Shown in pieces: positions 5,655 to 42,473 of a stretch of 64,000 nucleotides of DNA (positions within the stretch are counted from its first letter, which is position 1; every line of letters starts with the position of its first letter). Source of the DNA: an uncultured Candidatus Saccharibacteria bacterium (lineage in GTDB: Bacteria > Patescibacteriota > Minisyncoccia > JAHISW01 > Tagabacteraceae); assembly GCA_964601305.1 (NCBI GenBank), contig CAZRMW010000001.1:135450-199449 (forward strand). Reading direction: 5' to 3'. A model generated the notes under the pieces. That model was given only the letters and a program-made list of their open reading frames with translations. It ran no database searches and was not told the origin of the DNA. The position numbers and the translations under genes are program-made.

Positions 5655-7015
5655 TAAAGATTCTTTTTATTAGCTAGTGGATCTTTTTTGAAATAATCAC
5701 CATAAAACACCTTGGACGCTTGCCTACTTCCTCCTTTGCATTTAGAAACAAAAAAACATTTTTTGCATTCTTCTGGCAAATAATTTAAACTGCGGATTTT
5801 TTTTAGAAATTTATTTTTCCATACTTTTAGCACACTTGAAGTATCTCCTAAATTTTCATCGATAAAATAATGTGGTTTGTAAAACCCTCTCGGATCGACA
5901 ACAATTCTTGAATGTCCGTCGTCGGCAGTTGCGCCAACAGAAATACTACTCAATTTATTTGTATCTTTAATTGCACAAAAAGGAAGAGAGTTAGCTAAAG
6001 CAATAGGCATATCTAGTGTTTTTCTTATTTTAAAAATTTTTTCTACAAAAACTTTTACTAATTTAGAGTCTAAGATATTTTCTCCCGATATAGGAATTGG
6101 CCTATAAAACTCCCACTCATCAATGGGAAGTTTTTCAATAAAATCAGCCATATTTTCAAGATTTAAAATATTTTCTTTTGTAAGCACTGTGCCAACACGA
6201 ACAGTTTTTATTCCACTTTCTTTCAAAAATTTTATAGAGATTTCTTTCTTTTTTAAAACCCCTTTTCCTCCTGTAATTATATCCTCTTTTTGGGGTAAAT
6301 AATTTTCTATTGGGATTAAAATGTTGTCGACAAGTTTTGCTAAATTGTCTGCCATGGCTTTGTTTACCAAAATTCCATTTGTGTTTAGCCTTACTTCATC
6401 AAATCCCCTATTTTTTGCATACTTAAGAATTTTAAAAATATCTTTTCGTAAAAGAGGCTCCCCTCCAGTAAACCTGACTGTTTTTATTTTTGAACTATAG
6501 ACATCGTCTATAATTTTTTTTGTTTTCTCAAAACCCAACCGGGGAGACTTTTCTCTTCCACAAGAGGCAAAGGAAATTTTATTAAAACAAAAATTACACC
6601 TTAGATTACACTTTGGCTCTATTTCTATCATTACTTCTGTAGGTAAATCCAAAATAGGACTAAAGCCATTCTCCCTATAGTATTTCAAGTATCCCTTCGG
6701 GAATCCTCCACAAGATTTGTCCCACTTACATTTTTTGCAACTTTTCCCTTTATCTCCAGAAAAATTATCAAAAACGATATGGTCAAGAGAATTTGAAGAA
6801 ACCAAGCAATATGGAAAATTCTTTAAAATAATTTTTATCTTGCTTTCATATTTATTTAAAAGATTGTAAATAGATTCGAGAAGTTCTGGAAAAGACGGTA
6901 AATCAAGCAAGTTTTCTGCCAAAATAATTTCTAAGTTTTCTGATCTACTTTCAACAGCAATCTTCGCCAAAGAATCTATTGTTGAATAGTTTTGTTTGTC
7001 TATTTTATATTTCAT
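5654..7015 (-). CDS. Radical SAM protein with an extra N-terminal domain carrying the family CxxCx5CGG motif
   Basis: N-terminal CKKCKWDKSCGGFPKGY, central CNLRCNFC, FTGGEPLL, C-terminal CKKCFFVSKCKGG. Confidence 0.75.
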   Translation of the reverse strand: MKYKIDKQNYSTIDSLAKIAVESRSENLEIILAENLLDLPSFPELLESIYNLLNKYESKIKIILKNFPYCLVSSNSLDHIVFDNFSGDKGKSCKKCKWDKSCGGFPKGYLKYYRENGFSPILDLPTEVMIEIEPKCNLRCNFCFNKISFASCGREKSPRLGFEKTKKIIDDVYSSKIKTVRFTGGEPLLRKDIFKILKYAKNRGFDEVRLNTNGILVNKAMADNLAKLVDNILIPIENYLPQKEDIITGGKGVLKKKEISIKFLKESGIKTVRVGTVLTKENILNLENMADFIEKLPIDEWEFYRPIPISGENILDSKLVKVFVEKIFKIRKTLDMPIALANSLPFCAIKDTNKLSSISVGATADDGHSRIVVDPRGFYKPHYFIDENLGDTSSVLKVWKNKFLKKIRSLNYLPEECKKCFFVSKCKGGSRQASKVFYGDYFKKDPLANKKNL

Positions 7016-27289: not shown

Positions 27290-27310
27290 TCTTGCCCCGC
27301 TCGGCGGGGT
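27290..27310. repeat. GC-rich hairpin CTTGCCCCGCTCGGCGGGG (plus adjacent TTTGTTAAGGTTCA) between groEL and the next gene
   Basis: Reverse complement identical to 40571..40590. Confidence 0.6.
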
Positions 27311-29584: not shown

Positions 29585-29645
29585 TTCTAACAAAAAACCC
29601 CCGTGTGTCAACCCCGCCTAACGGGGTGAAGAACACGGGGGTTTT
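29585..29645 (-). terminator. Compound hairpin plus U-tract; terminator of 29653..30159, lying in the groES upstream region
   Basis: AAAACCCCCGTGT...(inner CCCCG-CCTAA-CGGGG)...ACACGGGGGTTTT, then UUUUUUGUU on the minus strand. Confidence 0.75.
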
Positions 29646-30159: not shown

Positions 30160-30197
30160 AATTGCCTCCTCTTGTTTTGATTGTCAACTTGTCCCGC

Positions 30198-30222
30198 TCG
30201 GCGGGATTTATAGATTTATATT
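30198..30222. repeat. GC-hairpin family member with compensatory stem change (TCCCGC-TCG-GCGGGA)
   Basis: C to T and G to A changes preserve base pairing. Confidence 0.55.
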
Positions 30223-39036: not shown

Positions 39037-39834
39037 TTATTTTCCTTCGTAATGCTCGAGTAAAAATTCTACTAAAATTTCACCTCCAAGTTGACCCTTG
39101 CTTCTTGCCCCGCCCGGCGGGGTTGGTTCTATAAAATACTCCGACTCTACTCTATCTTTGTTTACCGTTATACCCTTGCCCACTTGAAGCATTTCTGCAT
39201 CATTATAGTTGTTGCCCGTGGTCATAATTTGTTTTGGCTCTATGTTTAACTGCTTAGCTAAATTTTTTATTCCCATCCCTTTGTTTGTTTTTTTGCTTCC
39301 TATATCGTACCCTTCATTTGTCCAAAGACAGTAAAGCTCTCCTTCTCCAACCTCTTCCACCAATTTACAAATTTCTTCCATTTCATCACAATGAACCGTA
39401 AGCACAAAAAGTTTTGGTTCAAACCCTCTTATCCTGCTGTCCATCTTTTTCATTTCTTTTATTTTTTCTTTAAGAACTCTCAATTTATTAAAATATTCAT
39501 CGCTATAAACTTCGTGAGTAATTCTGTTATCAAGCCAAGTGATATTTCCATTCTCTGCTTGCAAAATCGTTTCTTTGTCAGAAAATCTATTTGTTAAACT
39601 TTTTAGATACAAAATATTTCTACCAGATGAAAAGTTTAAACGCACATATTTTTCTAGCTTGTTTAAATTTTCTACAAATTTATCTGAAAGCTGCTTAGAC
39701 TCCATAAAAAGCTTAGAGCCATCATCCTCCTCTCTAATTTCTGTACCAACAGGAGCTATCACTCCATCGATATCAAAAGTAACTACTTTTATATTGTCTA
39801 ATTCTTCTTTAGTTATTTCTTCTAGTTTTTTCAT
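39037..39834 (-). CDS. HAD-superfamily hydrolase (Cof/IIB-like)
   Basis: VVTFDIDGVI (DxD), TGNNYNDAEML (motif IV). The C-terminus carries an in-frame GC-rich repeat (PPGGARSKG). Confidence 0.7.
   Translation of the reverse strand: MKKLEEITKEELDNIKVVTFDIDGVIAPVGTEIREEDDGSKLFMESKQLSDKFVENLNKLEKYVRLNFSSGRNILYLKSLTNRFSDKETILQAENGNITWLDNRITHEVYSDEYFNKLRVLKEKIKEMKKMDSRIRGFEPKLFVLTVHCDEMEEICKLVEEVGEGELYCLWTNEGYDIGSKKTNKGMGIKNLAKQLNIEPKQIMTTGNNYNDAEMLQVGKGITVNKDRVESEYFIEPTPPGGARSKGQLGGEILVEFLLEHYEGK
39104..39125. repeat. GC-hairpin family member CTTGCCCCGCCCGGCGGGG inside the 3' end of the HAD CDS
   Basis: One loop substitution relative to 27290. Confidence 0.55.
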
Positions 39835-40008: not shown

Positions 40009-41103
40009 ATGAAAATCGGTATTGTAGGCCTACCAAACGTAGGCAAATCCACACTTTTTAAAGCACTAACAAAAATACAGGTAGATATAAACAACTACCC
40101 GTTTTGTACTATTGAACCAAATACAGGTATCGTTGAGGTGCCCGACGAAAGAATAGACAATCTTGCCAAACTTTCTAACTCCAAGAAAAAAATCTATGCC
40201 ACAATAGAGTTTGTAGACATTGCAGGAATTATAGAAGGAGCCAGCGAAGGTCAGGGACTTGGAAACAAATTTCTTCACAATATCCGCGAAGTAGATGCTA
40301 TAGCCCAAGTAGTGCGTGCTTTTAGAAATAAAAATATTACTCATGTACGAGACGAAGTAAATCCAGAAAAAGACATTGAAATTATAAACACCGAGCTTAT
40401 TTTGGCCGACATGGAAACAGTTTTAAAAAGAATTCCAAAACTAGAAAAAGAGGCCCGGGCACTAGATAAAACCGCTATCAAGCAATTAGAACTCGTCAAG
40501 CAACTCGAAAAAATATTAAACGAAAATAGTATGAAAAAAGTGAAAGAATTTATAAATTCTTTGGGAGAAGACCCCGCCGAGCGGGGCAAGCTTGAATTAA
40601 TTAAAGACCTTCACTTACTTTCTTTTAAACCAATCTTGTATGTAGTAAATGGGAGTAATTCGGGGGAAAAAATTGAAGGACTCGATAACAAAAACAGCCT
40701 CGTGCTAGATATAAAAACTGAGGAGGATTTGCTTGAATTATCAAACGAAGAACAACAAGAACTAGAATTAAAATCTCATCTATCAAAACTAATTACAAAA
40801 AGCTATGAGCTATTAGGGCTTATGACCTTTCTCACAACTGGAGAGGACGAGACGCGGGCATGGACCGTACCTATAAGCTCTGCGGCCCCGCGAGCTGGGC
40901 GCGCTATTCATGGAGATTTTGAAGAAAAATTTATCCGCGCTGATATCATCAACTACACCACTCTCCTCTCATCTGTGGGAAGCTCAACTTCCCACAGAGA
41001 TGATGTCAACCCTATGGCAAACGCCCGCGAAAAAGGCCTCATAAAAACCGTTGGTAAAGACTATATAGTCCAAAACGGCGACATAATAGAGTTTAGGATA
41101 TAA
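40009..41103 (+). CDS. ychF: Ribosome-binding ATPase YchF (Obg-like ATPase)
   Basis: MKIGIVGLPNVGKSTLF, TGS/C-terminal AWTV...IHGDFE...GKDYIVQNGD. Contains in-frame REP (SVGSSTSHR) and GC-hairpin (DPAERGK) segments. Confidence 0.9.
   Translation: MKIGIVGLPNVGKSTLFKALTKIQVDINNYPFCTIEPNTGIVEVPDERIDNLAKLSNSKKKIYATIEFVDIAGIIEGASEGQGLGNKFLHNIREVDAIAQVVRAFRNKNITHVRDEVNPEKDIEIINTELILADMETVLKRIPKLEKEARALDKTAIKQLELVKQLEKILNENSMKKVKEFINSLGEDPAERGKLELIKDLHLLSFKPILYVVNGSNSGEKIEGLDNKNSLVLDIKTEEDLLELSNEEQQELELKSHLSKLITKSYELLGLMTFLTTGEDETRAWTVPISSAAPRAGRAIHGDFEEKFIRADIINYTTLLSSVGSSTSHRDDVNPMANAREKGLIKTVGKDYIVQNGDIIEFRI
40571..40590. repeat. GC-rich hairpin repeat CCCCGCCGAGCGGGGCAAG (in-frame in ychF)
   Basis: Identical 19-mer to the reverse complement of 27290..27310. 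Confidence 0.6.
40972..40998. repeat. 27-bp REP palindrome TCTGTGGGAAGCTCAACTTCCCACAGA (in-frame in ychF)
   Basis: One mismatch to the copies at 42160 and 42395. Confidence 0.7.
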
Positions 41104-41149
41104 AAACTGGTAAACAAAAACTTTGCTTACCAGTTTCAAACAACTCTTT

Positions 41150-41584
41150 TTATTTTTTCTTTGTCAAAAACAAACAATTCTCAGTCCATTCTATTGTTTG
41201 TATCTCAAGCGAGTTTATTATTTTTTCTACAATTTCTCCGTCTTCTATGTTAAACACATGAGCACAAAGCTCTCCATCTTTATTCAAAAAAATAACAACG
41301 GGAAGATATTTAACAAAACTTGGAGATATTTCAAAAAAAACTTTTACCTCATTCAGACTAGCAGACATGAGAGACTTTTCTGCCATTTCTTTTGTAACTT
41401 TTTTTGTTGAGCTACCATCTTTTGTGGTAAATAAATGAAAATCACCACTCTCAAAACTGGGCGCCACCACCCCATCTTTAATGTTTAATTCACCACAATC
41501 TCTACAGTTTCTTAATAATTTTCCACATTCATCACAATACTCTGGTTTTACAGGTTTCATAAAATCTCCCTTTTTTATTTTCAA
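41150..41584 (-). CDS. Hypothetical protein with N-terminal zinc-ribbon (CDEC...CRDC)
   Basis: Probable start at MKPVKPEYCDEC. Confidence 0.4.
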   Translation of the reverse strand: MKIKKGDFMKPVKPEYCDECGKLLRNCRDCGELNIKDGVVAPSFESGDFHLFTTKDGSSTKKVTKEMAEKSLMSASLNEVKVFFEISPSFVKYLPVVIFLNKDGELCAHVFNIEDGEIVEKIINSLEIQTIEWTENCLFLTKKK

Positions 41585-41653
41585 CGATCAATGTTAGTTT
41601 ATAAAATAAAACCACAAAACCAAATTTTTTACAACACCACACACAAAATCTTC

Positions 41654-41682
41654 ATCTGTGCGACATCCGATGTCGCACAGAT
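41654..41682. repeat. REP-variant palindrome ATCTGTGCGACATCCGATGTCGCACAGAT, 3' of the RAYT gene
   Basis: Perfect 29-bp palindrome sharing the ATCTGTG...CACAGAT ends with the REP family. Confidence 0.65.
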
Positions 41683-41706
41683 ACCCTGTCAAGTTTTTAC
41701 ACCATC

Positions 41707-42387
41707 CTACTCTATTATAAATTCTCTAATTTCTTCGAAGGTGTTTTTTGCTTTGTTTTTATTTTTTTGGCAACTTTTTAAAAACTCATCGTACTCACTA
41801 AAGTTTTTACAATTTGTCCATTTATATTCTTCTAAAAACTTTTTTGCTTTTCTCCAATCTTTTAATCCACCATCTTTCCACCCTGGTTCAAATAAATCTA
41901 AGGGATTCATGTAAATATATTGTTTCAAATAATTTAAATATTCATCTCTATTAACCAAAATAGCCTTAAATCTTCCTTGGAAAAGAGACCCGCTTCTTTC
42001 ATATTTCTGATTAAAATAATTAGTATAACCAGTGCCAAGCTTTTGCATAAAACTAACAACCCCATTTTCTTCTACTTGTTCAAGTATCAAATGAAAATGA
42101 TTCGACATCAAACAAGAACAATGAATCTTAATTACTGGTTCCCTATCTTCTTTTTCTATTCTGTGGGAAGTTGAACTTCCCACAGATACAATACCGTTGC
42201 TCTTATTTATACGTCGAAATAAATTAATCGAAGAATTTTTGTCGTTAAAATCTCTCAACCCATAAAGAAACCTGTGGTAGTCTTCGTTATTCATAAAGAC
42301 TTTTCTCTTGTCTACTCCACGATTAAAAATATGATAAAAATGATTGTCTACAAATTGTGGTCTTTTCATTGTTTGTAGTATACACAT
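41707..42387 (-). CDS. REP-associated tyrosine transposase (RAYT; IS200/IS605-like Y1 HUH transposase)
   Basis: HFYHIFNRG...LMSNHFHLIL (HuH)...GTGYTNYFNQKYERSGSLFQGRFKAILV...YIYMNPL. Flanked by REP palindromes. A 27-bp REP lies in-frame at 42160-42186. Likely start at MKRPQF (42369). Confidence 0.75.
   Translation of the reverse strand: MCILQTMKRPQFVDNHFYHIFNRGVDKRKVFMNNEDYHRFLYGLRDFNDKNSSINLFRRINKSNGIVSVGSSTSHRIEKEDREPVIKIHCSCLMSNHFHLILEQVEENGVVSFMQKLGTGYTNYFNQKYERSGSLFQGRFKAILVNRDEYLNYLKQYIYMNPLDLFEPGWKDGGLKDWRKAKKFLEEYKWTNCKNFSEYDEFLKSCQKNKNKAKNTFEEIREFIIE
42160..42186. repeat. REP palindrome TCTGTGGGAAGTTGAACTTCCCACAGA (inside the RAYT CDS, in-frame)
   Basis: Exact reverse complement of the 42395..42421 copy. 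Confidence 0.75.
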
Positions 42388-42394
42388 TTTTTTA

Positions 42395-42421
42395 TCTGTG
42401 GGAAGTTCAACTTCCCACAGA
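42395..42421. repeat. REP palindrome TCTGTGGGAAGTTCAACTTCCCACAGA (between the RAYT start and rpsF)
   Basis: Perfect 11-bp arms. Confidence 0.75.
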
Positions 42422-42473
42422 TATATTGCATAATTTTGGAAAATTGGTAGTATATATCAGTAATACAAATATT

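Follow-up and report, generated by a model that had tools for sequence, protein, structure and literature searches.

We describe here a locus in a 64,000-nt stretch of DNA (hereafter, the window) from an uncultured Candidatus Saccharibacteria bacterium (GenBank assembly GCA_964601305.1, contig CAZRMW010000001.1, positions 135,450 to 199,449), where a gene resembling those of the REP-associated tyrosine transposases (RAYTs) is accompanied by short palindromes of the type known as repetitive extragenic palindromes (REPs): one upstream of the gene, one downstream, one within its coding sequence and one more in the nearby gene ychF. This locus is probably a REPtron or TIRtron (a RAYT-type gene with its own flanking repeats) that belongs to a Patescibacteria-specific clade of RAYT-like Y1 HUH transposases. 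The three-copy layout (5', internal and 3') is a conserved feature of this clade, in which hairpins diverge between lineages while the copies of one locus stay alike (concerted evolution). The copy in ychF is a genuine lineage-specific in-frame insertion. The features concerned are the following:

42393..42423 (core 42395-42421), no strand: 5' cognate REP hairpin, with 15-nt arms that are 100% complementary
42160..42186, no strand: REP inside the RAYT coding sequence, in frame, encoding S68-R76 (SVGSSTSHR) of the 226-residue open reading frame (ORF)
41654..41682, no strand: 3' variant REP hairpin of 29 nt, ATCTGTGCGACATC-C-GATGTCGCACAGAT, beginning 24 nt past the stop codon
40972..40998, no strand: REP in ychF, in frame, encoding SVGSSTSHR within an 11-residue (33-nt) insertion
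41707..42369, minus strand: RAYT/TIRYT-like Y1 HUH transposase gene, 220 residues from ATG 42369; the open frame reaches 42387
40009..41103, plus strand: ychF (redox-regulated ATPase YchF; TIGR00092 at 358.6 bits vs. a cut-off of 279), host gene of one REP

The four palindromes listed in the first-pass annotation (starting at 40972, 42160, 42395 and 41654) were all found where it had placed them. The pattern TCTGTGGGAAG-N5-CTTCCCACAGA matches at 40972-40998, 42160-42186 and 42395-42421 (0 expected, 100 shuffles), and the outer-arm pattern TCTGTG-N15-CACAGA adds 41655-41681, again with zero matches in shuffled sequence; with none expected, a chance origin of the palindromes is ruled out. As had been claimed, the copies at 42160 and 42395 are exact reverse complements of each other (loops TTGAA vs. 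TTCAA), and the copy in ychF has one different loop base (CTCAA). Folding as single-stranded DNA gave -12.4 to -14.5 kcal/mol for the window hairpins, with z-scores of -5.6 to -8.6 vs. shuffled controls (-14.4 kcal/mol and z -8.6 for the 5' hairpin, -14.5 kcal/mol for the 3' variant). The 5' hairpin ends 25 nt upstream of ATG 42369, and cognate palindromes thus stand on both sides of the gene, in the REP-RAYT-REP layout originally proposed. The remaining ~62 kb of the window are free of further copies or near-copies. Independent assemblies of three other metagenome samples contain the four-hairpin arrangement, including the ychF copy, with 0-2 mismatches, and it is therefore not an assembly artefact. 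A known RNA family over the hairpins was also considered and rejected, as a scan of the whole window at Rfam gathering thresholds returned three tRNAs only. Directly before TCTGTG, the copies carry TTA, GTA or TCA. As a separate observation, the non-palindromic flanks TCA-REP-TAC recur in the window (41651-41685) and in L025 and L031, and could parallel a guide or cleavage signal.

The assignment of the ORF at 41707-42387 (226 codons, minus strand) is also supported, in that it encodes a RAYT-like enzyme, with a corrected start. Its product matches Pfam PF01797 (Y1_Tnp) at 32.8 bits, above the cut-off of 23, in an alignment that spans residues 85-158 only, the N-terminal part being separated by a long insertion. 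It contains the motifs YHIFNRG, NHFH, LFQGRFK and YIYMNP; the HUH motif is N96-H97-F98-H99, and H97, H99, Y157 and N161 are invariant across 31 aligned homologs. The start is assigned to ATG 42369 (MKRPQF) on the evidence of homologs and of the identical database protein P0001. An AlphaFold model of the protein (mean predicted local distance difference test score, pLDDT, of only 65.9) has as its top PDB fold match 4ER8, the structure of E. coli TnpA_REP bound to REP, and the matches to 4ER8, 2XM3, 2FYX and 2A6M have probabilities of 0.95-1.0 and E-values from 1.6e-3 to 2e-2; a profile search of PDB sequences with the RAYT-like family gave no match. Among 3011 homologs of the protein, all those with a source name are labelled Patescibacteria. 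The 64-kb window holds no second RAYT gene copy.

The copy inside the RAYT gene had been interpreted as an insertion into this gene. A protein alignment of 30 homologs (44-100% identity), together with the DNA of 28 loci, rules out a recent private event, since an equivalent hairpin occupies the same site in the relatives. In essence, homologs do carry the same feature, at the level of DNA, whereas the peptide itself is variable. Indeed, nearly all 30 homologs have a related yet variable peptide at this site (e.g., VSVGYPMSNR, VSVGNPISHK, EVELRYI, EVGLPKI or EVEPRKI), in which residue pairs resemble reverse-complement codons (V/H, V/N, I/N), and homologs at 45-77% identity have an equivalent hairpin-encoded peptide at the same position; in P0018, the internal segment is missing entirely. 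The locus L001, from a Patescibacteria metagenome-assembled genome (MAG) labelled 'Candidatus Saccharibacteria', carries three copies of CTGTTGGAYATC-S-GATRTCCAACAG, one before its RAYT gene, one within it and one after it, and L004 carries GGGAAGTC-S-GACTTCCC upstream of and inside its gene. Overall, the 5'/internal/3' layout recurs, with other sequences, in L001, L004, L066, L198 and roughly 25 metagenome loci. The location of the internal copy also differs from the first description, by which it lengthened the spacing between the two catalytic motifs: it lies between the N-terminal beta1 motif and HUH, i.e., upstream of HUH and not between HUH and the tyrosine. The AlphaFold model places the encoded peptide in a long loop, specific to the family, that connects helix 34-46 (alphaA) with the HUH strand; residues 70-75 at the apex of the peptide have pLDDT below 50.

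A broader sampling was obtained from 80 further metagenome loci (32-49% identity), in which hairpins were sought in the 95 nt before the CLMxNHxH codons. An internal hairpin with 9 or more base pairs in its stem was detected in 28 of 71 loci vs. 6.4% of control windows (P about 1e-15), with a strong dependence on subfamily: 25/39 in the closer one (AFCLM type) vs. 3/32 in the distant one (GAYCLM type), where several weaker internal copies still match their flanks. The distance from the internal hairpin to the CLMxNHxH codons downstream of it is 26-67 nt in the 28 distinct loci, mostly 35-55. In all 22 testable loci, a 10-mer is common to the internal copy and the 5' flank of the same locus; for the 3' flank this is true in 15 of 19, and about 10% of comparisons between different loci show such sharing. 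In most homologous loci the 3' copies stand at +2 to +24 nt (at +80 in one).

When the 28 distinct internal hairpins were aligned on their centres, each of stem positions 2-10 proved to be Watson-Crick paired in 89-100% of cases, and single positions showed as many as four pair types. Pooled over 27 distinct loci, these positions are Watson-Crick in 232 of 243 cells (95.5%), and the overall fraction of paired cells is 87% vs. 47% (maximum 56%) with arms shuffled between loci. The stems are near-perfect, reaching 19 bp. The palindrome centre is read in two codon phases (15 loci vs. 12); conservation therefore concerns the DNA palindrome and not the encoded peptide. Wobble pairs are not enriched over other mismatches (4 vs. 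7), a pattern that agrees better with a strand-symmetric DNA palindrome than with a structure in RNA only. The near-perfect upkeep of the stems in most close relatives argues that something keeps the internal copy. A fixed orientation rule (5' G, internal C, 3' G), which is true of the window, L001 and L004, was dropped, as it fails across the metagenome loci.

The dispersal of the palindromes was assessed in one genome per species using the pattern TCTGTNGGA-N9-TCCNACAGA; the matches listed cover relatives, not the window's own genome. The single-amplified genome (SAG) AM-311-F06 contains at least 16 copies (RAYT loci counted) over at least 8 contigs, the L001 genome (CAZPYD01) at least 6, and two other Patescibacteria MAGs at least 3 each. 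The same SAG illustrates specificity: on its contigs 1 and 3 (L004, L198) it has two diverged RAYT paralogs, 75% and 74% identical to the query, of which P0003 is accompanied by a triad of GGGAAGTC-S-GACTTCCC and P0005 by a triad of GGGAGATY-SR-ATCTCCC, each 5', internal and 3', and each variant has dispersed copies of its own. These paralog-specific triads represent the one-enzyme, one-repeat relationship known for RAYTs. The window and L001 have in common the gene order rpsF-RAYT-x-ychF, with RAYT proteins 77% identical, and the contexts vary elsewhere (L004 adjoins nifU, L197 adjoins recG). Taken together, the single copy in the window, the synteny with L001 and the diverged paralogs in one SAG apparently fit a low copy number and vertical inheritance.

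One further relative displays a gene cut exactly at the internal REP. Its protein, P0013, which over the C-terminal part is closer than any other relative (82% identity), begins inside the REP peptide. At the DNA level (L197), non-homologous sequence next to recG is followed immediately by a REP and then by coding sequence from VGSSASHR; the two REPs of this locus are at 5997-6023 and 6478-6504, the latter adjoining the stop codon on its downstream side. The truncation would stem either from loss of the DNA that separated the 5' and internal copies or from a rearrangement between two REPs.

The claim of an in-frame insertion in ychF is borne out by alignment of its product, which contains the Pfam domains MMR_HSR1 and YchF-GTPase_C (in the latter, 94 residues align to 83 profile positions). 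The syntenic YchF of L001 (78% identical) lacks exactly 11 residues at SSVGSSTSHRD, and the same 11-residue gap appears in the PDB structures of H. influenzae and E. coli YchF (1JAL and 8KIE). The short form is present in 117 of the 120 best YchF homologs (58-100% identity), and two of the 120 have an unrelated 8-residue insert nearby; the SVGSSTSHR-type insert occurs in the window's YchF only and is absent in the other 119 of 120. The ychF copy is also present in the independent assemblies L199 and L200. Thus, as in Rickettsia palindromic elements (RPEs), residues absent in orthologs were added and the frame stayed intact.

As had been noted, both intragenic copies (RAYT and ychF) encode the same peptide, SVGSSTSHR. 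The accompanying explanation, that the palindrome reads as the same peptide on either strand and is tolerated for this reason, is wrong here, because the window REP, when flipped in the frame used, reads AGT TGA, a stop. Both intragenic copies share one orientation relative to their host genes, with the sense loop YTCAA. In relatives with the loop TCSGA, both orientations are open and the middle residues differ (SVGSPTSHR vs. SVGGRTSHR). Copies read in frame were encountered in genes for TsaD (L047), cysteine desulfurase (L111), GatA (L062) and YchF (the window), always in the phase S-V-G-x-x-x-S-[HN]-R; the L111 copy is a flipped one (SVGGRTSHR), and IscS in L111 gains about 8 residues vs. 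a solved structure. Two of these candidates do not stand as clean insertions: in TsaD, a clean 9-residue insertion cannot be shown, as the REP sits in a 38-residue lineage-specific insert, and GatA has no length change vs. Aquifex GatA, leaving merely a REP-like palindrome in coding sequence.

Two side observations concern these host genes. In cysteine desulfurase, the loop after NLA[IV]FG has REP-derived inserts in two genomes (L004 8553-8640, L111 5585-5637): in L111, a tandem duplication of 12 nt (TTCCCACAGACC twice) comes after the REP, and in L004, the REP is split by a nested second palindrome (CACTGAGAGAGATC/AGATCTCTCTCAG) and accompanied by a partial REP. In the window, a second, GC-rich palindrome family unrelated to the REPs of the RAYT gene, (C)TTGC-CCCGC-YSR-GCGGG-GT, is found at 27296-27308, 30193-30205, 39109-39121 and 40573-40585 (0.16 matches expected), with a weaker copy at 29613-29625. 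Its 39109 copy lies within an ORF for a haloacid dehalogenase (HAD) hydrolase (39037-39834; TPPGGARSKG), and its 40573 copy, located in ychF, gives the six residues PAERGK, which are missing from the other 119 of the 120 best YchF homologs. Therefore, together with the REP insert, ychF holds two different in-frame palindromic insertions.

Placed among known systems, the locus combines features of several. REPtrons are RAYT (TnpA_REP) genes with flanking REPs (Nunvar 2010, PMC2817692; Ton-Hoang/Messing 2012, PMC3479197; PDB 4ER8). The likeness extends to a single-copy Y1 HUH gene with a Y...NP tyrosine motif, short palindromes on both sides that are found elsewhere in the genome too (here, in relatives), a REP variant of its own for each gene copy and apparently vertical inheritance. 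Unlike in REPtrons, the hairpin foot has no GTAG (or CGTC) tag, the copy number is low (at least 6 to at least 16 in relatives vs. typically more than 100), and the protein scores under the NCBIfam equivalog cut-off; compared with E. coli TnpA_REP, it is about 60 residues longer, with an insertion of roughly 35 residues before HUH and another C-terminal domain.

TIRtrons, i.e., RAYT-like genes flanked by non-GTAG inverted repeats, some self-complementary and moderately abundant, were described by Di Nocera et al. (2013, PMC3733652), who also catalogued intragenic REPs. The present locus is alike in its flanking repeats without GTAG, which in TIRtrons are sometimes self-complementary and form moderately abundant families, and unlike in the absence of the shared terminal inverted repeat (TIR) motif GGGGWSAS and in its flanking elements, which are compact perfect palindromes. 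At the protein level, the features of subclass 2.1 (NH[YF]H, FQ, Y[IV]HLNP, about 238 residues, a C-terminal 'SS'), as given by Quentin, Siguier, Chandler & Fichant (2018, PMC6006769), compare well by eye with the window protein (NHFH, FQ, YIYMNP) and its relatives (YIHLNP, YRWSSY). Judged by these motifs, the protein is probably a TIRYT of subclass 2.1 (Bertels group 1). A difference is that subclass 2.1 is reported there without nearby REP-like sequences and without in-gene copies.

The closest precedent for the internal copy is subclass 2.4 (Bertels group 4), for which in-frame REPs inside tnpA_REP genes are described, with REPs within unrelated genes also cited (PMC6006769). Common to both are a cognate REP in the transposase coding sequence with the frame intact, its position in a peripheral variable region, the additional flanking REPs and the REPs in unrelated genes. 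The site, however, is another one, upstream of HUH here (alphaA to beta2), with the insert 20 codons before HUH. The motifs of subclass 2.4 are WQ and YIxNNP (Table 1 of the same paper) vs. FQ and YI(H/Y)(L/M)NP here, its REPs are long and GTAG-tagged or 'double foot', and its taxa are mainly Cyanobacteria and Bacteroidetes. The concerted evolution, two phases and paralog triads shown here are not mentioned in the accessible text of that paper. The insertion in ychF, in turn, recalls RPEs, which are short palindromic repeats in frame in housekeeping genes, encoding a tolerated peptide absent from orthologs. RPE-1 is longer, and RPE-4 and RPE-6 are CGTC-tagged REPs, a class without a dedicated transposase (PMC3733652). 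By contrast, the element described here is 27-33 nt long, has its cognate transposase next door and is read in the same codon phase (S-V-G...S-H/N-R) in all examples found.

Thus, the phenomenon is known in kind, in-frame REPs having already been published for RAYT genes (subclass 2.4) and for housekeeping genes. What is new is the phylum (no report linking REPs with Patescibacteria was found in the searchable literature), the subclass, the untagged compact palindromes and the different intragenic site, as well as the demonstrated properties of this site: conservation, covariation with the flanks, use of two reading phases and paralog specificity.

A working model of the REPtron/TIRtron can be drawn from better studied relatives. 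TnpA_REP and IS608 TnpA recognize hairpins in single-stranded DNA and cut and rejoin at the hairpin feet. By analogy, the enzyme encoded in the window would bind its hairpins in single-stranded DNA and would cut and rejoin at their feet, and this predicted activity would both spread and replace REP copies. The copy in ychF, about 700 bp from the RAYT gene, would represent a recent short-range transposition, which may survive because the reading frame yields a small hydrophilic loop peptide. The internal copy may be an old insertion or a repeatedly re-filled site, held identical to the active REP variant via excision and re-insertion, or via conversion.

Several observations weigh against this reading. 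Away from the RAYT gene, the 64-kb window contains no copy but the one in ychF, and a dispersed REP family is demonstrated in relatives only, not in the genome of the window. No copy, in the window or in relatives, has a GTAG/CGTC guide tetranucleotide (GT[AG]G) at the hairpin foot. The protein scores 33.8 bits with the NCBIfam RAYT equivalog REP_Tyr_transpos (NF047646), under its cut-off of 80. Matching REPs on the flanks without a strong hairpin inside the gene were seen in at least 18 loci; the internal copy is dispensable, because many homologs have matching 5' and 3' REPs without it, and its persistence elsewhere is unexplained by the REPtron model alone. Finally, the activity of the clade's enzymes is putative, being drawn from analogy, and concerted evolution could stem from ordinary recombination instead of the enzyme.

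The persistence of the internal copy invites a different reading, by which it is not tolerated selfish DNA but a cis-acting element under selection, where the enzyme would bind or nick its own gene. We regard this as unlikely on balance, if worth stating in two versions: titration could make RAYT expression or cis-activity depend on how large the REP pool is, or the REP pair could serve as an off switch through excision or rearrangement of the gene's promoter-proximal part. Other HUH enzymes have their target within their own coding sequence (the origins in phiX174 gene A and in pT181 repC). In favor of such a role, the site persists across a clade of about 40-77% identity with stems of up to 19 bp, its peptide varies freely and in two phases, and each paralog's internal copy matches its own flanks, whereas even close relatives do not share the insertions found in other genes (as in ychF); the L197 gene is cut exactly at the internal REP, and the 5' REP overlaps a promoter-like -35. 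Nevertheless, the loci (at least 18) whose matched flanks enclose no strong internal hairpin, the absence of the segment in P0018 and the variable orientation of internal vs. flanking copies between loci all argue against it. Moreover, constant re-insertion or conversion at a permissive loop would give the same pattern without function, and the authors of the subclass 2.4 study read similar in-gene REPs as neutral (PMC6006769). That the in-frame palindrome functions in cis as a self-referential element, bound or nicked by the enzyme in its own gene and co-evolving with that gene across the Patescibacteria clade, is a tentative proposal with less chance of being right than wrong by a wide measure.

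Considerably less probable is that the hairpins act in RNA or transcription (as terminators, mRNA stabilizers or translational controls, roles that many E. coli REPs have), their similarity being due to recruitment of one host factor. Some positions do suggest this. The 5' REP lies between the divergent RAYT gene and rpsF, in the promoter region, and its proximal arm contains a sigma-70-like -35 (TTCCCA) with a -10 of TATACT; the 3' variant looks like a terminator on the RAYT strand (a 14-pair stem followed by AAGATTTTGT), both by consensus match alone. E. coli REPs are known as regulators in 3' untranslated regions (10.64898/2026.03.23.713779). Against these positions stand the pairing statistics (232 of 243 pairs Watson-Crick; 4 wobbles vs. 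7 other mismatches), which indicate a strand-symmetric DNA palindrome, as well as the copies in ychF, IscS and TsaD, which have no plausible RNA-regulatory position, and the fact that hairpin variants track the RAYT paralog.

Similarly improbable, an autonomous IS200-like insertion sequence with the hairpins as its ends (other copies being solo ends or miniature inverted-repeat transposable elements, MITEs) would account for the hairpin-gene-hairpin resemblance to IS200/IS605 ends, for the differing contexts of homologs (L004 nifU, L197 recG) and for two paralogs in one genome, but is opposed by the lack of a second copy in the window, by the divergence of those paralogs (75% and 74% to the query) with different REPs, which are not recent copies, by the synteny with L001 kept at 77% protein identity, by a tyrosine motif of the RAYT class (Y...NP) and not the Y...Q of IS200 (Table 1, PMC6006769) and by a length of 220 vs. 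about 150 residues.

On the preferred reading of the locus as a REPtron/TIRtron, REP/RAYT-type systems exist in Patescibacteria, i.e., in ultrasmall bacteria, and REP elements contribute to lineage-specific loop insertions in the proteins of this phylum. The clade bears on the questions of what role RAYTs play in the host and how REP families arise and stay uniform, for which it offers a compact natural experiment: tiny genomes with few REPs, a target inside the enzyme's own gene, paralog-specific triads and in-frame insertions in essential genes (ychF, IscS, TsaD). For annotation purposes, peptide inserts like SVGxxxS[HN]R in conserved proteins can be treated as footprints of mobile DNA. If the internal copy were indeed regulatory, it would add a new logic for matching a domesticated transposase and its repeats.

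The remaining neighbors of the RAYT gene in the window are:

41150-41584, minus strand: ORF of 144 residues between ychF and the RAYT gene, with no annotation obtained
from 42474: rpsF, then ssb and rpsR

The product of the ORF at 41150-41584 has no match in Pfam or NCBIfam, and the syntenic position in L001 holds an unrelated NUDIX gene. Since NUDIX genes adjoin the RAYT gene in both L001 and L004, a conserved RAYT-NUDIX module was considered and dropped. The degenerate pattern used in the dispersal scan also caught the palindrome TCTGTCGGACTTCTATAGTCCGACAGA and its variants in many Lachnospiraceae/Blautia genomes (L005, L008, L022, L037, L045, L048, L074 and other loci), which probably represent an unrelated repeat family.

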